Assembly: GCA_032691205.1 (NCBI GenBank)
Contig: GCA_032691205.1_4541.1
Source of the DNA: a phage
Reading direction: 5' to 3' (one strand)
Length of the DNA: 64,000 bases
Shown: positions 295-8,852 of the stretch, one piece after another
How positions within the stretch are numbered: position 1 is the first letter of the stretch
Layout of the letters: each line of letters opens with the position of its first letter
Position numbers and translations under genes: made by a program
Notes under the pieces: model-generated
Told to the model about the DNA's origin: nothing
What the model saw: only the letters and a program-made list of their open reading frames with translations
The model's database searches: none

Positions 295-489
295 ATGCAG
301 AGCGGAGAAGAACTTTTAGAGAAACAATTCTCAACGCGTCAACAAGCTTTAAGTTATATGGTTTTTCTAAGCAATCTTGATGTGAATGAGATACTTTTAC
401 AGCGCGAAGGTAATTTCTGGAGCGTTAAATATCATGCAACAAGGTCTGTAATCTACCTGGAAGAGGCGGAATTCTCTTTGGTAGAATGA
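295..489 (+). CDS. hypothetical protein (64 aa)
   Basis: ORF track; RBS AAGGAGGG upstream of ATG. Confidence 0.55.
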   Translation: MQSGEELLEKQFSTRQQALSYMVFLSNLDVNEILLQREGNFWSVKYHATRSVIYLEEAEFSLVE

Positions 490-1076
490 TCCGAGGAGTA
501 GTTATGCGTTCAACTTTCACTGGCAAAATAAATGCTGGTTTGATTTTTACAGCAGTAAGCATTCTTAGCAAAAAGTTTAAAGTTGTTAACTTACCTGTGT
601 GTGTCGATTTCGATCATGTTTTTGATCCTTCGAACCCCACTCGTTGCATAGTAAGGAGTAATGTTGAAAACCCAACAGAAAATCTTTTTTATGTAACAAA
701 ACCATCTCAAAGCATACTTAACCAGGTTGAGGCGAAATTGATACCTAACGGTAAATATTACTCCTTTTTACCTTGTAAGTCGGTTGAAGTAGAGAATAGC
801 AATACTTTCGCTAATAACTTGTCTGTATTCGTTTTCTTTGTTTCACAGGAAGACGAAACAGATGAAATGGTAGCAACAGTGAGATCACTTTATGACTCTT
901 TAGGGGTTGTTTATAGTCAACAGGTGTGCGAAAATAATAAATCCTGTGTAGATTTCATTATCAACGGTATTTGTGTTTGTAGAGTAGAATCTTTTTGGCT
1001 GCACGATACATATGTGACTGTAGCAGAGGTTATATCTGAACCAAGATTTAGTCATGCGGTTTCGTTAATAATTTGA
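486..1076 (+). CDS. hypothetical protein (196 aa)
   Basis: ORF track; ATGA stop/start overlap with upstream gene. Confidence 0.55.
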   Translation: MIRGVVMRSTFTGKINAGLIFTAVSILSKKFKVVNLPVCVDFDHVFDPSNPTRCIVRSNVENPTENLFYVTKPSQSILNQVEAKLIPNGKYYSFLPCKSVEVENSNTFANNLSVFVFFVSQEDETDEMVATVRSLYDSLGVVYSQQVCENNKSCVDFIINGICVCRVESFWLHDTYVTVAEVISEPRFSHAVSLII

Positions 1077-1086
1077 GGAGGAAGGA

Positions 1087-1416
1087 ATGGAAATTACTAC
1101 AGAACAAGCCCTTATCGACGAGGGTCGTAAAATCTTAGAAAAGTATTTAGAGGAGATTCATAAAACCCCTGGCTATTTGGGTTGGAGAATTGTTGAAGCT
1201 GTAGATTTCCTTCCTCGTAACAGTAAAAGCGTCGAAATGCGATCTCTTTTCTTATTAGTAAAGGTGGATGGGGATACACCTTTTAAAGATGCCGCAGAAC
1301 ATATTGAAAAAGTTGAAGAGAAAGCTTATGCAGAATTTGCCGATCTTGTTTTAGAACAAGAGATTGAAGGAAAGGTGAATATTTTTATTTTCTTAGATTT
1401 TGAGGAGGATAAGTGA
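1087..1416 (+). CDS. hypothetical protein (109 aa)
   Basis: ORF track; RBS GAGGAGG upstream. Confidence 0.6.
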   Translation: MEITTEQALIDEGRKILEKYLEEIHKTPGYLGWRIVEAVDFLPRNSKSVEMRSLFLLVKVDGDTPFKDAAEHIEKVEEKAYAEFADLVLEQEIEGKVNIFIFLDFEEDK

Positions 1417-2156
1417 TCATACACAGAGAAATTACTGTTAAAAGCGATCAAGATCTTTTTATAATTGGAGATCTACACGGTTGTTATAATTTGTATGAAA
1501 AAGGAAAGGCAAAGTTAGGTATCCGAGATACAGATGTGGTTGTATCTCTAGGAGATCTTACTGACCGTGGAAAGCAAAACTTTCGTTGTGTTTTAGAATT
1601 TACTCGTAAACACAATCGCTACGCTATTCGTGGCAATCATGAAGACATGATGATTAAAGGTATGCTGGAAGGAGATCGTAGCTACTACGAGTGTTGGTAT
1701 CAAAATGGAGGATATACGGTCTTTGAAGAATGTGGTGAAGAAGGAGCTACAGCCTTAGCAATGATGACAGAAGATTTACCTGTTGTTCTCATTGTTAACT
1801 ACAGAGGCATGAAACTTGCGTTTATTCATGGTGGGTATCCATCTTCTTTGGAATATCTCCCTGTAACAGATATTCCAGAATACATTTCGAAGATGACAAA
1901 AACACAGGAAAACCGTTTTGCTGAAGCACTTATGTGGGACAGAGATATGGTAGACTGTGCTAAAGAGGGAATGAAACTTCCTGTTGTGATGGGTGTGGAT
2001 TATGTGTTTCATGGACACTCTTATGTAAAAACACCTATTATCAATGCGAATCGTGTTTATATGGATACTGGATCTGTGTTCAATAATAACTTAACATTTG
2101 CTTATTTCGATATGGACGGTGGTCTTCAATTTTATTCAACTCTTGAGGAGGATTAA
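1413..2156 (+). CDS. PPP-family metallophosphatase (Ser/Thr phosphatase or ApaH-like)
   Basis: Motifs GDLHG, GDLTDRG, GNHE in canonical order in the translation. Confidence 0.8.
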   Translation: MIIHREITVKSDQDLFIIGDLHGCYNLYEKGKAKLGIRDTDVVVSLGDLTDRGKQNFRCVLEFTRKHNRYAIRGNHEDMMIKGMLEGDRSYYECWYQNGGYTVFEECGEEGATALAMMTEDLPVVLIVNYRGMKLAFIHGGYPSSLEYLPVTDIPEYISKMTKTQENRFAEALMWDRDMVDCAKEGMKLPVVMGVDYVFHGHSYVKTPIINANRVYMDTGSVFNNNLTFAYFDMDGGLQFYSTLEED

Positions 2157-2464
2157 TGTATAAGATTACAATTATTCAAAGTGTAGGTAATATCCGTAAA
2201 GAAGTTATCTTAGAAACAGAAGATGTTAATCTTGTTCGTAAGATTGTTCTTAAGGAAGATAACCTGCAAGCTGTAGAATCAGATGCACCGAATCTTATGG
2301 TGGATCAAGAATATTCTGAACTTCGTCGTATTTTTGAAGAGATTCAGAAGAAAGAAACACAACCGACCATAAAACCTTTTGGTCCTTATGATCCGAGCAA
2401 TCCTAGCAGTCCTTGGATCATGAGAAATACGGAACCGTATACACCTTTTGAAATTACTTGTTGA
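2156..2464 (+). CDS. hypothetical protein (102 aa)
   Basis: ORF track; start overlaps upstream stop. Confidence 0.55.
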   Translation: MYKITIIQSVGNIRKEVILETEDVNLVRKIVLKEDNLQAVESDAPNLMVDQEYSELRRIFEEIQKKETQPTIKPFGPYDPSNPSSPWIMRNTEPYTPFEITC

Positions 2465-2471
2465 GGTGATT

Positions 2472-3053
2472 ATGGCAGAACTGTTCTATACGGGAGTTGG
2501 AAGTAGAGACATATCCGAAGAAGAGTGGGCTTTGATGGTAGGCATAGGGAAATGGCTTTCAAACCTTGGGTTTAAATTAAGGTCTGGGAAGGCAGAGGGT
2601 AGTGATTCTGCTTTTGAAACAGGTGTCCAAGAGTCTGAAAATCCTACTAACAAGGAGATTTATGTTCCTTGGGAAAATTTCAAAGGTAATCAGATTCCAG
2701 GGGATGTTATTGTTCTTGCAAAACCAGATACAATGAACTATGCTATCTCTGTGCAATGGATCAAAGATGTTCACCCAGCCTATGAAAAGCTTAAGCAGGG
2801 TGCTAGAAAATTGCACCAACGTAATGTGCATCAAGTGTTAGGTAGAGATTTGGAGAATCCTGCTCCATCATGTTTCTTGTTGGCTTGTGCTAATACTGAT
2901 AAACATGGAGATGCAAAAGGTGGAACAGCTACGGCTTGGAAGATAGCTAAAGCCAATAATGTTCCTTGTTTAAACATTCGTGGGAAAACAAAACAAGAGA
3001 TTTACGATTTTCTACGACCTTTGGTAATGAGGGCAATAACAAGTGATTCCTAA
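2472..3053 (+). CDS. SLOG/DprA-like Rossmann-fold protein (putative)
   Basis: Start moved to ATG 2472 (RBS GAGGTGA); motif GVGSR ... SGKAEGSD resembles DprA/LOG-type nucleotide-binding loop. Confidence 0.5.
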   Translation: MAELFYTGVGSRDISEEEWALMVGIGKWLSNLGFKLRSGKAEGSDSAFETGVQESENPTNKEIYVPWENFKGNQIPGDVIVLAKPDTMNYAISVQWIKDVHPAYEKLKQGARKLHQRNVHQVLGRDLENPAPSCFLLACANTDKHGDAKGGTATAWKIAKANNVPCLNIRGKTKQEIYDFLRPLVMRAITSDS

Positions 3054-3555
3054 ACGTAAACGTGGTGAACAAAGAACAAACTTGGCAGAAATCTTAGATT
3101 ACAACATGGTTAATGATGTGACAAAAGAAATTCTGCCTGTTGTAGAAAATATTCTTCAAAGAGGGTTACGATTCTGCTCGGATCGGGTGCATTTCATGTG
3201 GACACATAAAAGTGACTCCGCTTTGAATTTCTATCCTTTGGACTATACTCTGAACAATACGGAGATGAAAGATATCAACAAATACTTAATGGGATATAAA
3301 GATATAACAGAAACTGTTCTTGGAGAATTGGCAGAGATCTTGGCTAATGATATCCTTAGAAATATTAATAAGGCTCTTGACAGAAGTCCAGCAGGAGTAG
3401 TAGTATCTTTTGCTGTGCCAGATATGGTTAAATATGAGTCTACAATACCTAATAAAGCTTATGCCTTTCTTCGGAGAGACGTTCGTGGAAATGTGTTGGA
3501 GATGGAGTCAAACTACAAGATTGAGGAGGTTTTATGGCAGAGTTCGGATCAGTAA
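3043..3555 (+). CDS. hypothetical protein (170 aa)
   Basis: ORF track; GTG start. Confidence 0.5.
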   Translation: MIPKRKRGEQRTNLAEILDYNMVNDVTKEILPVVENILQRGLRFCSDRVHFMWTHKSDSALNFYPLDYTLNNTEMKDINKYLMGYKDITETVLGELAEILANDILRNINKALDRSPAGVVVSFAVPDMVKYESTIPNKAYAFLRRDVRGNVLEMESNYKIEEVLWQSSDQ

Positions 3556-4786: not shown

Positions 4787-4796
4787 TAAATAATAA

Positions 4797-4817
4797 CCCG
4801 CTTCGGCGGGTTTTTTA
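4797..4817 (+). terminator. rho-independent terminator
   Basis: cccgcttcggcggg hairpin followed by T7 tract. Confidence 0.7.
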
Positions 4818-4876
4818 TTGACAGGAATCTGGAAGCTTGATAAACTTAACCTATCAACCAATAGAGGAGAAATATT

Positions 4877-5818
4877 ATGGTGTTAATTGGTAGCCGTGCA
4901 TTGCAAATTCATGCTATGGACATGGGAAAAGACTTGTATCGCCCTTGTGTAGATTTAGATTACCTGTGTACAGAACAAGAGTGGGAAGAATTATCAAAAA
5001 TGTTCTCTCAAGACGAGTTTGTTGAACTTGTAGAACGTAAAGGGAACAAAGGCCATGTCAAAATGATAGCTGGCGCACATTTGGAATACGATATTGCTTC
5101 TCAAGGAGATAGCACAGAAGCTTTGATTAGTTATTGTGAAGATTCTGATGATGTTCGTCGAACTTACGCTGGACATGTTGTTGCTCCTTTAGATGTGCTC
5201 TACCTTCTTAAAATGAGTCATCGTTTTAAAAAGGATAGTCCTCACTTCTTTAAAACTATGAAAGATATTCATTTCATGCGGTCACTGGGCGCAAAGATCC
5301 CAGAAAATCTTAAGAGTATTTATGAGTTGCGTGAGAAAGAAACATACACTTACTCTCATCCGAACTTAAACGTAAAAAGTAAAGACTTCTTTAAAGGTGA
5401 TGAGGTTCCGTATGTTTATGATCATGATTCTATCCATGAAGCAATCGCGGTAATGGATGCTCCAGCATATAAATCTTATATGAAAGATGGAAGTGAAGTT
5501 ATGACCAGCAAAGAAAAGTTTTTTGCTCAACCAAAACATGTGCGCCTGTTAGGTGTTTATGAAGAAGCGTGTGTTTTGGCTTTGGAACGTTCACAAATTC
5601 CTTTCGGTGAAGAGATCGGAGGTCCAACCCCTAAGCAAAGTTTTATAATGGCTTTATCTAAAGTCTGCACATCCATCACTAGTGGTTGGTTTAGGGAATA
5701 TGCTTGGGAAAACCTTTATGTTGTTATTAAGCTATATGAAAACATGGGCGAAAACGACTATGTTGAACGTTTTAAAGCTAATCAACATGTAGTAAAGCCT
5801 TTTGAAGGAGGTTATTAA
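4877..5818 (+). CDS. putative nucleotidyltransferase-fold protein (313 aa)
   Basis: RBS GAGGAG; N-terminal GSRA...DLDY resembles Pol-beta-type NTase G[SG]-x-D-x-D motif (weak). Confidence 0.55.
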   Translation: MVLIGSRALQIHAMDMGKDLYRPCVDLDYLCTEQEWEELSKMFSQDEFVELVERKGNKGHVKMIAGAHLEYDIASQGDSTEALISYCEDSDDVRRTYAGHVVAPLDVLYLLKMSHRFKKDSPHFFKTMKDIHFMRSLGAKIPENLKSIYELREKETYTYSHPNLNVKSKDFFKGDEVPYVYDHDSIHEAIAVMDAPAYKSYMKDGSEVMTSKEKFFAQPKHVRLLGVYEEACVLALERSQIPFGEEIGGPTPKQSFIMALSKVCTSITSGWFREYAWENLYVVIKLYENMGENDYVERFKANQHVVKPFEGGY

Positions 5819-5819
5819 T

Positions 5820-6215
5820 ATGTGTGGATATCTTTCAGAAAGTTATTTCAAAGTGACGCATGAGGATTTAGAAAAAGCACGATTGAAACTGACAGCTATT
5901 ATTGAACACTCTAATACTGTTGATCACAGATTAAAGACTACTAAAGTATCTGTTCCTTGTTGGTTAGGTTTACGGCATAAAATAATGTCTCAACATGCCC
6001 ATGTTGTTCGAGAGATGCATGGTTGGTGTTGGTTTCACGATGTGGCTCTGCATTTTGGTTATATTACAGAAGAAGAGCATAGATTCTGTGAACTAACATA
6101 TCGTATTCCAACCCTTCACGATTTAGATTTGTGGAAGAAAGCAAACGAGATTTTTCTTACAGAAAGTGATTGGCGTAAAGTTATGGCTTGTCTTGAATGG
6201 AGGGGTAATGAGTAA
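5820..6215 (+). CDS. hypothetical protein (131 aa)
   Basis: Track ORF trimmed to ATG 5820 after GGAGG. Confidence 0.5.
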   Translation: MCGYLSESYFKVTHEDLEKARLKLTAIIEHSNTVDHRLKTTKVSVPCWLGLRHKIMSQHAHVVREMHGWCWFHDVALHFGYITEEEHRFCELTYRIPTLHDLDLWKKANEIFLTESDWRKVMACLEWRGNE

Positions 6216-6891
6216 AACAGTTTTGTCTATGTTTGACGGATCTGGGATCATGGTGTTACGTTATGCCGAAGCAGGTCACAAGTGTTTTTGTGTAAACGCT
6301 GATGAAGGGGATCACGGTAAATACGAGGTTAGGATGGAGCACCCAAACATAACCTATGTGAATGCCTGGATAGATTCTACATTCAACCCTGAAGATCATG
6401 GGATACCTAAACCCGATATTATTTTTGGATTTCCACCTTGCACTATGTTAGCAGGTAGTGGTAGCAAACACGAACGTAGCACAGAGGAATTAGATGAAGC
6501 TTTAGCTAATATTCGTGTAGTGGAAGCTTTGGGTAACAAATATAATGTTCCTTGGATGATTGAAAACCCAGTAGGTAAACTTTCAACCTTATGGCGTAAA
6601 CCCGATTTTTACTTTGATCCTTATGAGTATGGTGGGTATTTGTTTGAAGAGGAAGGAAGCTTTCATCCTAAAATGCCTACCCGTGATGGGTATACAAAGA
6701 AAACTTGTATTTGGCACGGCAATGGTTTTGTTCAACCAGTGAAGAAACCAGTAGATCATATAGGCTGCTTCTGGGGTTGGAAAAGCTTAGGCGGAGCTAG
6801 TGCAAAAACAAAACAACTCAGATCACTAACCGCACGTGGTTTTGCTCGTGCAGTGTTTTTGTCTAACAATCTTCTAGATAAGGAGAAATAA
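6208..6891 (+). CDS. C5-cytosine DNA methyltransferase-like protein (putative)
   Basis: Start ATG 6208 after GGAGGGG; motifs FDGSG, GFPPCT (PC-type) and ENP (ENV-like). Confidence 0.5.
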   Translation: MSKTVLSMFDGSGIMVLRYAEAGHKCFCVNADEGDHGKYEVRMEHPNITYVNAWIDSTFNPEDHGIPKPDIIFGFPPCTMLAGSGSKHERSTEELDEALANIRVVEALGNKYNVPWMIENPVGKLSTLWRKPDFYFDPYEYGGYLFEEEGSFHPKMPTRDGYTKKTCIWHGNGFVQPVKKPVDHIGCFWGWKSLGGASAKTKQLRSLTARGFARAVFLSNNLLDKEK

Positions 6892-7508
6892 TGTCAAATT
6901 CAAAACCAGTAGTTGCTTATCAAGTAGATCGTAATGATGGTGAAGGTAGTGTTGTAGTTTTTGATACACATGGTCTTGCAGCAAGACGCAAAGGTGCTTG
7001 TCTACTGGACATTGGTGGTGAAGATGAATACTGCACTGTACGTAGAGTAAAAGAATTTGATCAATATGCTGAAAAAGGTTTTGTACCCGTGAAAGCACTA
7101 TTAGAAGCTGGATGGTGGATACCTAGTGCACATGATTATGATATTTTGGAAGATACAGATGAATTCAACAGTGAAGATTTTGTTTTTTCTCTGGATGAAA
7201 AATGCGTTTGGAAGGACTGGGATGAAATGGAACGCCATGCTTATTTTATAAACGAAGCATTAGATCGTAAAACTTGGTTTGAGAATACAGTTAAAGCAGC
7301 GTATCCTCAATTTACTTTTACACAGTTTTGGGGTGGCCCACATCATATTACTCATACAGCATATTTCGAGTTCCCAGGCTCACGTTATAAAGGTACTGTT
7401 TATTGGGATTGGGACGAGGACAAAGAACCTTCTGCTCAAGACTTCCGTTGCTATGTTTGTCAAGGTGATCAAGAAGCCCTTGACAAATACCTACAAAGTC
7501 TGGTATAG
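6891..7508 (+). CDS. hypothetical protein (205 aa)
   Basis: ORF track; RBS AAGGAGA. Confidence 0.6.
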   Translation: MSNSKPVVAYQVDRNDGEGSVVVFDTHGLAARRKGACLLDIGGEDEYCTVRRVKEFDQYAEKGFVPVKALLEAGWWIPSAHDYDILEDTDEFNSEDFVFSLDEKCVWKDWDEMERHAYFINEALDRKTWFENTVKAAYPQFTFTQFWGGPHHITHTAYFEFPGSRYKGTVYWDWDEDKEPSAQDFRCYVCQGDQEALDKYLQSLV

Positions 7509-7525
7509 TGCCAACATCTGAACAA

Positions 7526-7556
7526 AGCCTCCTGTTTCAGGGGGCTTTTCTTTTAT
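7526..7556 (+). terminator. rho-independent terminator (imperfect stem)
   Basis: gcctcctg/cagggggc hairpin followed by T-rich tract. Confidence 0.5.
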
Positions 7557-7566
7557 AGGAGGGAAT

Positions 7567-8052
7567 ATGTTTCAAGTAAATGTCAATGTGCATAATAGTT
7601 ACTCTGATTGTGAAACGTGTGGCTATAATTCATCTAATGTTATTCGTATTAGTGGCGATTTAGGAGAAGCTTCTTTTGGAGAAGAAGCAAGTTGCTTTAG
7701 TGGTATGGATGCAGAATGGAATGATATTGCACATTGGTTAGTGAGCAAACTAAAAGAAAAAGAGAAACCATTTCCTACTCTGCTTGATCGTTCTCTTGTG
7801 GAAGATGCAGGTAAAGCATATGCAGACTATGCGTATGCAGACGGGAAATATTTGGAAGATGATAAGGCTAACCATTTGCTTTATGTTTATTATGAAGCTG
7901 AATCTGCCTACGATAATTATTACAGCATGTCTAACATCCTACGTCTGTTTGCAGAGTTTGATATTTATTTCGAAGTAGAATTTTCAGAAGATGATGTTTA
8001 TGAATATGATTCTTATGATCCATTTGAGGAGGAAGAATGCCAAGACGAGTGA
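7567..8052 (+). CDS. acidic hypothetical protein (161 aa)
   Basis: ORF track; RBS AGGAGGG. Confidence 0.55.
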   Translation: MFQVNVNVHNSYSDCETCGYNSSNVIRISGDLGEASFGEEASCFSGMDAEWNDIAHWLVSKLKEKEKPFPTLLDRSLVEDAGKAYADYAYADGKYLEDDKANHLLYVYYEAESAYDNYYSMSNILRLFAEFDIYFEVEFSEDDVYEYDSYDPFEEEECQDE

Positions 8053-8852
8053 TTTTTGTAAGTGGCGCAGGACTATCTGTGGATAGCGGTATCCCAGCTT
8101 TTAGAACAGATACTTCTTCAGGGGAGGCGTTATGGTCTTCTTATAATCTTTCTGAAGTCTGTGACATTTTCAACTTCCGTGACGGGTATCAGCAAGAACA
8201 AGGTATTCTTGATGCTATGGGCGGTTTAGATGCGGAAGGATATAACCTCTACCGTAAAACTCACGACTTTTACAATAAACGTCGCGCGGAATTAGAGAAA
8301 GTTGACCCGAATCCGGCACATCTTCAGATTGGGGAATGGTTCAAAAAACATGGTGCAGAAAAGATTATTAACATCACTACTAACGTTGATGACCTCCTTG
8401 AACGAGCAGGAGTAGATAGGGAAGAAGTGCTACATGTGCATGGTTTTCTTCCTGAAATTACTTTTCAAAGAAAAGCTGGACAACCTACAATTGTAAAAGA
8501 TGTTGGTTATCAAGCCATAGATGTAGATGACTACCATTATGTAAAACCTAATGTAATCTTCTTTGGGGAAGCTGCTCCACTTTACACAGATATGTATCAT
8601 ATTTTTGATACACTGACGGCTCAAGATATGGTTATCGTTGTAGGCTGCTCTAACCAAGTAATCAACTTCAACTGGGAACTCTTCCCTGCCCTGAATATTG
8701 GGGTTAAGATGGTTGTAGTTAACCCAGGTTTGAATTTTGTAGAACAAACTCTCTACGAAGAACGTGGAGTGCTTGTCTACCGAGAGAAAGCAGGAACAGT
8801 CTTCAGTGATGAAGGCTTTATCAAAATGGTTGAAGACCATTTAAACAAATAA
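8037..8852 (+). CDS. SIR2-family (sirtuin-like) protein lacking zinc ribbon
   Basis: Motifs GAGLSVDSGIPAFR, TTNVDDL..HVHG, IFFGE, VVGCS; no Cys pairs. Confidence 0.75.
   Translation: MPRRVIFVSGAGLSVDSGIPAFRTDTSSGEALWSSYNLSEVCDIFNFRDGYQQEQGILDAMGGLDAEGYNLYRKTHDFYNKRRAELEKVDPNPAHLQIGEWFKKHGAEKIINITTNVDDLLERAGVDREEVLHVHGFLPEITFQRKAGQPTIVKDVGYQAIDVDDYHYVKPNVIFFGEAAPLYTDMYHIFDTLTAQDMVIVVGCSNQVINFNWELFPALNIGVKMVVVNPGLNFVEQTLYEERGVLVYREKAGTVFSDEGFIKMVEDHLNK

Follow-up and report, generated by a model that had tools for sequence, protein, structure and literature searches.

A compact Dcm-like gene in a Phapecoctavirus genome probably encodes a complete orphan DNA cytosine-5 methyltransferase

Bacterial C5-cytosine methyltransferases (MTases) are about 320-470 aa in length and carry a target-recognition domain (TRD) of 90-150 aa. 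In their canonical mechanism, the Glu of the ENP in motif VI protonates N3 of the cytosine. The E. coli K-12 strain MG1655 is dcm+. In phages, the Dcm-like protein of K42 is the trigger of the retron Ec86/Eco1 defence (10.1101/2023.08.16.553469; Wang et al., Cell Rep 2024;43:114857). Its expression raises the 5mC of the retron Ec86 msDNA as measured by LC-MS, and both this rise and the toxicity of the protein to retron-carrying cells are gone in the quadruple mutant C82A/E128A/K175A/K176A, of which K175 and K176 are described as substrate-binding residues (10.1101/2023.08.16.553469). Phages that escape retron Ec86 carry a disrupted dcm, and in the CCTGG of the msDNA all three CC substitutions abolish defence (10.1101/2023.08.16.553469). 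The CCWGG target in that study was assumed from the E. coli Dcm literature, without mapping, and the empty-vector control in MG1655 has low msDNA 5mC (10.1101/2023.08.16.553469). Klebsiella phages KP15 and KP27 carry genes named 'Dcm', which may or may not belong to the family described here, and are EcoRII-resistant, a property that is confounded by the host Dcm. In BASEL, phage MTase genes have no simple link to restriction resistance.

We analysed a 64,000-nt stretch of phage DNA (the window), which belongs to a Phapecoctavirus, a phAPEC8-like E. coli myovirus. On the + strand, an ORF at 6208-6891 (start ATG at 6208, stop TAA at 6889-6891) encodes a protein of 227 aa. A Shine-Dalgarno-like GGAGGGG, read from the sequence, stands upstream of the ATG (6199..6205, +), and the MSK N-terminus of the protein agrees with the N-termini of its homologues. 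The gene is already known. Phage ECML-183-2, which is 99.4% identical, has a CDS annotated as 'Dcm' at the same coordinates, and phages tuntematon and EF1-1, whose isolation host was K-12 MG1655, encode 100% identical proteins annotated as Dcm or DNA methyltransferase. With identical proteins deposited and annotated, and one homologue studied experimentally, the finding is real but ordinary. From the ORF, its phrog_757 profile match, the AF2 model, the Foldseek matches and the homology to the KarlJaspers Dcm-like protein, we annotate the CDS as a predicted compact orphan C5-cytosine DNA methyltransferase. We put at roughly 85% the probability that the protein, which belongs to the compact 'Dcm-like' phage family phrog_757, is a complete DNA cytosine-5 methyltransferase, catalytically competent and standing alone as an orphan.

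The protein matches the phrog_757 profile over its full length (E 1.8e-84, 283.7 bits; residues 1-225 against profile positions 13-223 of 247), and homologues occur in 1488 of the 50,697 phage records (about 3%). Pfam PF00145 scores the protein at 11.6 bits, below the gathering cut-off of 22 (E 0.18, covering motifs I-IV alone), and in a Pfam scan of 69 diverse family members it reaches E<0.01 in just one. A search of NCBIfam with the protein gives no match. Sequence and profile searches against the PDB (with the single sequence, and with profiles of 40 and 69 sequences) reach a best E of about 0.08. In the single-sequence search, residues 5-87 align to residues 3-80 of M.HaeIII (E 0.081), spanning FxGxG and PPC, and for the 69-member profile the best weak match is DNMT2 (E 0.098), which covers motifs I-IV only and is not significant. 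The family is abundant in phages yet unseen by Pfam PF00145 and NCBIfam, and an assignment of methylomes to genes that starts from PF00145 would overlook it.

The AF2 model of the protein (pLDDT 89.7, pTM 0.88) has seven beta-strands in the order of a class-I MTase. Foldseek against the PDB finds 85 matches at E<=1e-3, and the best 50 of the 85 are all DNMT3A/3B catalytic domains. Their best E is 3.1e-8, at a probability of 1.0 and a TMq of 0.53-0.57; the likeness to DNMT3A/3B is moderate (TM about 0.53, rmsd 6-8 Å). The structural matches in BFVD are viral cytosine methylases, the top one with a TM of 0.93 and 56% identity. As modelled, the protein has the class-I AdoMet-MTase fold on which the original prediction of a compact, C5-MTase-like gene had been made to depend, and that prediction stands.

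The FDGSG, GFPPCT and ENP motifs had also been read, in this order, as C5-MTase motifs I, IV and VI. The ORF is present, the motif residues are invariant in homologues, and by this conservation of sequence the motifs are not chance matches. Motif I (FDGSG, aa 9-13; 6232..6246, +), the predicted AdoMet-binding loop after strand 1, is conserved and has weak HMM alignments to motif I of M.HaeIII and DNMT2. Motif IV (GFPPCT, aa 74-79; 6427..6444, +) includes the predicted catalytic nucleophile Cys78, and motif VI (ENP, aa 119-121; 6562..6570, +) is paired by hhalign with the ENV of E. coli Dcm. Among 40 homologues with 60-93% identity, D10, G11, S12, G13, F75, P76, C78, T79, E119, N120 and P121 are invariant. 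Among 69 diverse members with 33-59% identity, P76, C78, E119, N120 and P121 still are, and the wider family has the pattern F-D-x-[ST]-G in motif I.

Two further conserved elements, YTKKT and (T)K.(L/I)RS.TPRGFA.AVF, stand where motifs VIII (QxRxR), IX and X (GNAVP) are expected, and may be their equivalents. The motif-VIII-like YTKKT (6691..6705, +) includes K164/K165 and runs into strand 7; in the family alignments Y162 never varies, and the conservation of K164 and T166 is 90% or higher. R205, S206, P209, G211 and A215 are at least 90% conserved family-wide, and we infer from this conservation and from a helix at 210-219 in the model that RSLTARGFARAVFLS (6820..6864, +) is a motif-X-like helix. 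The YTKKT is separated from RSLT(A/P)RGFARAV by a spacer of 41 residues (34-54 among 69 members), which bears out the earlier remark that the protein of about 227 aa lacks an obvious TRD. The large TRD between motifs VIII and IX is absent, and what lies between YTKKT and RSLT is a variable stretch of just 35 residues or so (aa 172-204). This mini variable region (6721..6819, +) is, by its variability and insertions, the sole candidate target-recognition element. Within it, aa 181-197 are the most variable stretch and the insertion hot-spot in the C-terminal half of the family; the mean entropy of aa 181-190 is about 3.0 bits, and the insertions fall at position 187.

The KarlJaspers (Bas06) protein bas06_0055 aligns end to end at 50% identity (E 1e-71; residues 5-220 here with 6-234 there), with FPPCT, IENP and KKTC aligned. 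We take its numbering as that of K42 Dcm because E128 falls on the ENP Glu, and C78, E119, K164 and K165 here are then C82, E128, K175 and K176 of K42 Dcm. The 227-aa protein would itself, we infer, be active by canonical C5-MTase chemistry. The FDGSG loop would hold AdoMet, the target cytosine would flip out, Cys78 of FPPCT would attack C6 and Glu119 of ENP would protonate N3; the methyl group would move to C5, and beta-elimination would free the enzyme. The catalytic loop, together with the roughly 35 variable residues at aa 172-204, would read the sequence in place of the 90-150-aa bacterial TRD, a mini recognition architecture that would be closest to the DNMT3 catalytic domain. As a product of an early or middle block of genes in its phAPEC8-like myovirus, the enzyme would methylate the replicating phage DNA, and the progeny would be protected from 5mC-sensitive restriction enzymes. 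The cost would be that host defences can sense methylation, as when msDNA methylation by the homologue (retron Ec86/Eco1) triggers abortive infection. Its homology makes the protein a candidate for triggering retron Ec86/Eco1, and this matters for which retron-carrying hosts, E. coli B/BL21 for example, phAPEC8-like therapeutic phages can infect.

The MTase gene may be part of a putative four-gene unit. By consensus scan, a TG-extended promoter-like site, TTGACA-17-TAAACT (4818..4846, +), may start the unit, and a terminator-like hairpin with an 11-bp stem and a T-run (7524..7548, +) would close it. Another terminator-like hairpin, at 4795-4812, lies immediately before the promoter-like site. 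The first gene of the putative unit (4877..5818, +) encodes a 313-aa DUF7277/DUF7275 protein (PF23940 E 2.2e-75, PF23942 E 8.6e-14; phrog_2141). The ORFs on either side of the MTase gene were identified from the ORF list and their phrog matches: upstream is an ORF of 131 aa (5820..6215, +; phrog_16551), the last 8 nt of which overlap the MTase start, and downstream one of 205 aa (6891..7508, +; phrog_8514), its ATG overlapping the stop codon of the MTase in TAATG. We considered this translationally coupled downstream ORF as a conserved partner, a nuclease or a protein of 5mC processing, and rejected it: it has 22 homologous clusters only, restricted to one phage lineage (contigs of about 150 kb or fragments), and its AF2 model (pLDDT 81.5) has no match to PDB folds at E<0.5. 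The neighbours of the MTase gene (DUF7275/7277, phrog_16551, phrog_8514, phrog_9509 and Sir2) include no restriction endonuclease that could make up a type II restriction-modification system, and nothing adjacent is conserved, as the neighbours are completely different in four other lineages (RB49, DrSchubert, mEp515 and KarlJaspers). The MTase gene is an orphan, without a cognate nuclease gene.

A small protein with a poor PF00145 score could be a decaying remnant of a full-length C5-methyltransferase, having lost the TRD and the C-terminal motifs. Its 227 aa against the 320-470 aa of the bacterial enzymes, and a sub-threshold match to motifs I-IV alone, would suit such a remnant, but the length and the end-to-end alignment are kept in 1467 of the phage records with a homologue, which cover at least 80% of the query. 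The family counts 1883 representative clusters with 200-260 aa as the length norm, and its best 150 clusters are mostly in that range and aligned over profile positions of about 2-224. The C-terminal 60 residues (TK.IRS.TPRGFA.AVF), which a remnant would have lost, are among the most conserved of the family; the fold is compact and confidently modelled, and a homologue just as long is active. The conservation of length across the family refutes a truncated MTase, which the original prediction had entertained, and we give it next to no credence. We think it very improbable that the protein is catalytically inert, an MTase-like decoy, AdoMet sink or DNA-binding anti-restriction factor. A cognate nuclease and a canonical TRD are indeed absent, and anti-defence proteins abound in phage early regions, but the nucleophile Cys, the ENP Glu and the motif I Gly are invariant, and a decoy would have no need of them; in the homologue, the quadruple mutation of those residues abolished both toxicity to retron cells and 5mC formation. 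There is likewise only a slim chance that the substrate is something other than duplex DNA, whether tRNA/RNA as for DNMT2, free nucleotides, or only single-stranded or hairpin DNA. DNMT2 is the best weak PDB sequence match of the family profile, and the msDNA hairpin is the only demonstrated substrate of the homologue, but that match is non-significant and confined to motifs I-IV, the best 50 of the 85 fold matches all act on DNA (DNMT3A/B), and the msDNA stem is itself duplex DNA. To our knowledge, C5 methylation at the nucleotide level is the work of thymidylate-synthase-like enzymes and not of the C5-MTase fold, which also counts against such a substrate. The anti-restriction decoy and the nucleotide-modifying enzyme, both raised in the original prediction, fit neither the (nearly) invariant Cys, ENP Glu and KK pair nor a 50%-identical homologue that forms 5mC in DNA in vivo.

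For an active DNA C5-methyltransferase, the reading we prefer, CCWGG (EcoRII-type) is the most plausible target, plausible but unproven. CCWGG is unavoided in the window (96 observed against 84 expected, O/E 1.14), for which the host Dcm could equally account, and CCSGG is avoided (1 observed against 9.7 expected, O/E 0.10), the pattern expected if CCWGG is methyl-protected. Many palindromes are strongly avoided in the window, among them, besides CCSGG, GGATCC (0 observed against 12.2 expected), CGATCG (0 against 11.7) and CCGG (O/E 0.34). A literature search gave no mapped specificity for phrog_757 members, and no methylation or restriction data on Phapecoctavirus. With so tiny a recognition element, and no relation between the protein and the host Dcm, the target could be other than CCWGG, either a shorter or more relaxed sequence or the outer cytosine of CCWGG; we hold such a target to be rather unlikely. 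It would fit an hhalign probability against E. coli Dcm of just 0.8%, a variable region of only 34-54 aa, and closest folds (DNMT3) that read a 2-bp site. The msDNA of dcm+ MG1655 is low in 5mC until the phage enzyme is expressed, which by our analysis hints that the phage enzyme differs from the host Dcm, and the CCWGG of the preprint was borrowed. Against a different target, it is the CC of CCTGG in the msDNA whose substitutions all abolish defence, the window leaves CCWGG unavoided with CCSGG nearly absent, and the phages with 100%-identical genes came from MG1655, where RmC or YmCGR methylation would be self-defeating, as K-12 has McrBC and McrA.

As a tentative proposal that we would not bet on, the family may be the smallest class of C5-cytosine DNA MTases (about 225 aa), in which a loop of about 35 residues reads the site, possibly in a DNMT3-like dimer, with a specificity or substrate preference unlike that of the host Dcm (for example hairpin or nascent DNA, the outer C, or a shorter site). 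If true, the difference from Dcm would account for a retron Ec86 msDNA that stays silent where the host is dcm+ but is methylated once the phage enzyme is present. Since PF00145-based searches fail to pick up the family, methylome surveys would then systematically leave a considerable part of the 5mC methylation in phages without an assigned gene. The protein, with its 225 aa or so and hardly any TRD, is an attractive minimal scaffold for studying the sequence specificity of C5-MTases.

The KarlJaspers/K42 Dcm-like enzyme and the protein described here belong to the same phrog_757 family, are similar in size (236 and 227 aa, respectively) and have identical catalytic and binding residues. Both genes are orphans in a phage early region, and the AF2 model of the K42 authors and ours both superpose best on DNMT3A. 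The phage lineage differs, a 150-kb Stephanstirmvirinae myovirus here and a 51-kb Drexlerviridae siphovirus for KarlJaspers, and so do 50% of the residues, including most of aa 181-197; specificity may therefore diverge from that of the K42 enzyme. The DNMT3A/DNMT3B catalytic domains (e.g. PDB 8EIH, 2QRV, 6F57) are the best structural matches (E 3e-8 to 1e-6, TMq 0.50-0.57), and share a recognition element that is small relative to bacterial enzymes, but identity is just 13-20% and the rmsd is 5-10 Å. The DNMT3 catalytic domain has about 280 aa and a longer TRD loop, and reads CpG as a DNMT3A/3L tetramer; the FDGSG of motif I here presumably resembles the 'LFDG' loop of DNMT3A. With E. coli Dcm and the M.EcoRII type (PF00145) the protein is expected to share the 5mC chemistry, and motifs IV and VI align (PC...ENV in Dcm, PPC...ENP here), but Dcm has 472 aa against 227 here, where the large TRD is lacking and, unlike for Dcm, no vsr adjoins the gene. 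We rejected the protein as an orthologue of the host Dcm: when the 69-member family profile is aligned to K-12 Dcm with hhalign, that 0.8% probability comes with E 0.07 over 71 aligned columns, motifs IV-VI only, and the name 'Dcm' therefore does not stand for orthology. Finally, M.HaeIII (1DCT) and M.HhaI have motifs I, IV and VI in the same order, and differ in that their motifs VIII and IX are set apart by a TRD of about 80-100 aa, against the 41-aa spacer here, and in a GNAV-type motif X, where RSLT(A/P)RGFARAV is the last motif of the phage protein.

The methyltransferase ORF (MTase) runs on the + strand from an ATG at 6208 to a TAA at 6889-6891 and encodes 227 aa, with a Shine-Dalgarno-like GGAGGGG at 6199-6205 (+) on the 5' side of the ATG. 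A longer start at GTG-6166 is unnecessary because the starts of the homologues fall at the MSK... position, and a CDS is annotated at the same position in phage ECML-183-2 (99.4% identical). The original prediction placed three C5-MTase motifs here, and all of them are found on the + strand in the proper order: motif I, FDGSG, at aa 9-13 (nt 6232-6246), motif IV, GFPPCT, at aa 74-79 (nt 6427-6444), and motif VI, ENP, at aa 119-121 (nt 6562-6570). Residues D10, G11, S12, G13, F75, P76, C78, T79, E119, N120 and P121 are invariant in 40 homologues with 60-93% identity, and P76, C78, E119, N120 and P121 are also invariant in 69 diverse relatives with 33-59% identity. Judged from sequence, the motifs are not chance matches. 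The observation is confirmed, and its interpretation is partly supported.

The prediction was to fall if no AdoMet-MTase fold appeared in structure prediction, and such a fold is what the prediction gives. The AlphaFold model, a confident one (pLDDT 89.7, pTM 0.88), has seven strands in the class-I methyltransferase order (4-8, 25-30, 48-52, 71-74, 116-121, 134-136 and 166-171), with FDGSG after strand 1, PPC after strand 4, and ENP at the end of strand 5. Foldseek reports 85 PDB matches at E<=1e-3, of which the best 50 are all DNMT3A or DNMT3B catalytic domains (best E 3.1e-8, probability 1.0, TMq 0.50-0.57); against predicted viral structures, family members come first (TM 0.93 and 0.78), followed by assorted viral cytosine methylases. 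At the level of the model, structure settles the fold as that of a class-I AdoMet-MTase.

Sequence methods barely detect the kinship with canonical C5-MTases. The Pfam profile PF00145 reaches only E 0.18 and 11.6 bits (cut-off 22), over motifs I-IV; NCBIfam gives no match; and PDB searches with the single sequence and two profiles do no better than E 0.08, with M.HaeIII and DNMT2 as targets and alignments likewise confined to motifs I-IV. Just one of 69 members of phrog_757, the family of compact phage "Dcm-like" C5-MTases, matches PF00145 at E<0.01. When the family profile is aligned to E. coli K-12 Dcm with hhalign, PPC pairs with PC and ENP with ENV, but the probability is 0.8%, and sequence profiles thus detect no orthology with Dcm. 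With a sequence relation so nearly invisible, the public label "Dcm" denotes an activity class, not orthology.

That the protein might be a truncated MTase is not borne out. Its full-length PHROGs match is phrog_757 "DNA methyltransferase" (E 1.8e-84). A tblastn search finds homologues in 1488 of 50,697 phage records, 1467 of them covering at least 80% of the query, in Drexlerviridae, Webervirus-type Klebsiella phages, Krischvirus RB49, Vequintavirinae, and Felix-O1-like, lambdoid and P1-like phages. In an exhaustive profile search, 1883 representative clusters reach E<=1e-3; among the matches listed, most complete clusters are 200-260 aa long and align end to end, so the small size is the family norm. 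The family is known and widespread: 100%-identical proteins occur in phages BI-EHEC, tuntematon and EF1-1, and the latter two copies are already annotated as "Dcm" or "DNA methyltransferase". The surrounding DNA (5500-8000) matches 124 phage records by megablast (top identity 99.4%), from Phapecoctavirus (Stephanstirmvirinae), phAPEC8-like E. coli myoviruses of ~150 kb. Five of these megablast records carry the label "Campylobacter phage", with C. jejuni as host, and a homologue with 62.5% protein identity occurs in Campylobacter phage C4 (49.9 kb); such labels on coliphage-like records may reflect mislabelling or contamination in public records.

The lack of a conventional target-recognition domain (TRD) does hold. 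In bacterial type II C5-MTases such as M.HhaI and M.HaeIII, the TRD has roughly 80-150 residues. Here, a conserved YTKKT (in 69 diverse members, Y162 is invariant, and K164 and T166 are at least 90% conserved) is separated from the C-terminal TK.(L/I)RS.TPRGFA.AVF by 41 residues, and by 34-54 in 69/69 diverse members. We infer that YTKKT is motif-VIII-like and the last helix motif-X-like. Within the C-terminal half, variability is highest inside the spacer, at aa 181-197, where insertions also concentrate; this is how a specificity-determining element would look, yet the candidate region has only ~35 residues. An anti-restriction decoy is not likely; the protein is C5-MTase-like, and most probably an active orphan DNA C5-methyltransferase.

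Small early/middle genes form a + strand block around the MTase, which shares 8 nt with the end of an upstream ORF (5820-6215, +, phrog_16551) and whose stop overlaps the start (TAATG) of a translationally coupled downstream ORF (6891-7508, +, phrog_8514). Consensus scans, as pattern matches only, place a hairpin (4795-4812) just before a promoter-like site (4818-4846, +), and a strong terminator-like hairpin at 7524-7548 (+). Together these suggest a single four-gene unit, whose first gene would encode a 313-aa DUF7277/DUF7275 protein (4877-5818, +; PF23940 E 2.2e-75, phrog_2141). A further neighbour is phrog_9509. The 6891-7508 ORF has just 22 homologous clusters, all from the phAPEC8-like lineage; its model (AF2 pLDDT 81.5) finds no counterpart among solved folds (best E 0.53), and invariant residues are numerous, among them W75 W76, W172-D173-W174 and H116/H155. 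The neighbours are entirely different in RB49, DrSchubert, mEp515 and KarlJaspers, so the MTase is an orphan that has neither a conserved partner nor a cognate nuclease. Nearby, we also observe a 271-aa Sir2-family protein two genes downstream (8037-8852, +; Pfam SIR2 E 3.2e-21, phrog_2162) and an upstream early-gene block (486-3555, +) with a 196-aa phrog_4806 protein labelled "histidyl tRNA synthetase", a NinI-like Ser/Thr phosphatase (1413-2156, +; Metallophos E 2.7e-13) and a DprA-like protein (2448-3053, +; phrog_768). ECML-183-2 has a second small "putative DNA methyltransferase" (70826-71335; L001 1789-2298; 169 aa, VOG0822) that would fall ~700 nt before window position 1, and four methyltransferase CDSs are described in a paper on the related phage BME3.

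Numerous palindromic restriction sites are very strongly avoided in the window, and several are absent: GGATCC (12.2 expected), CGATCG (11.7), CTGCAG (10.2), CCATGG (7.7), GCATGC (7.2) and GGCGCC (6.9). Over the whole window, O/E is 0.34 for CCGG, 0.38 for GTAC, 0.40 for GGCC, 0.43 for CTAG, 0.21 for CTSAG and 0.10 for CCSGG (1 observed, 9.7 expected); GATC (1.06), GCGC and CGCG are at expectation, and CCWGG is unavoided (96 against 84.1 expected, 1.14). This pattern fits a phage shedding most restriction sites and keeping methylation-protected ones, and the non-avoidance of CCWGG cannot separate phage from host methylation. E. coli K-12 MG1655, on which phages carrying the identical gene were isolated, has McrBC and McrA; this argues against a target creating RmC or YmCGR. 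MG1655 is also dcm+. Control MG1655 with empty vector had low 5mC on CCTGG-containing retron Ec86 msDNA until a phage enzyme of this family was expressed (10.1101/2023.08.16.553469). This suggests that the compact phage enzyme may prefer other sites or substrates than host Dcm. In that study CCWGG is taken from the E. coli Dcm literature, assumed rather than mapped, and the msDNA mutants are consistent with it (10.1101/2023.08.16.553469).

Such an enzyme would probably shield phage DNA against 5mC-sensitive restriction. Which sequence is recognised, and how so small an enzyme reads it, are matters for the whole of phrog_757 rather than for this locus.

The closest studied system is phage K42, the source of selected retron Ec86 escapers and a KarlJaspers/Bas06-like Drexlerviridae phage (10.1101/2023.08.16.553469; later Wang et al., Cell Rep 2024;43:114857). 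A 711-bp "dcm" gene was disrupted in 4/4 K42 escapers; its product, when expressed, was toxic in retron-carrying cells only and raised msDNA 5mC by LC-MS; the C82A/E128A/K175A/K176A mutant did neither; defence was lost when msDNA CCTGG became AATGG, ACTGG or CATGG; and the authors superposed their AF2 model on DNMT3A (6F57) (10.1101/2023.08.16.553469). The KarlJaspers (MZ501090) counterpart bas06_0055, "Dcm-like C5 cytosine methyltransferase" (711 bp), is 50% identical to the MTase (E 1e-71, query 5-220, subject 6-234). Their FPPCT, IENP and KKTC all align, so C82, E128, K175 and K176 of the K42 enzyme correspond to C78, E119, K164 and K165 here. By homology, the MTase may be a trigger of retron Ec86/Eco1; with this identity and these aligned residues, it belongs, at full length, to a family of which one representative has been studied functionally.
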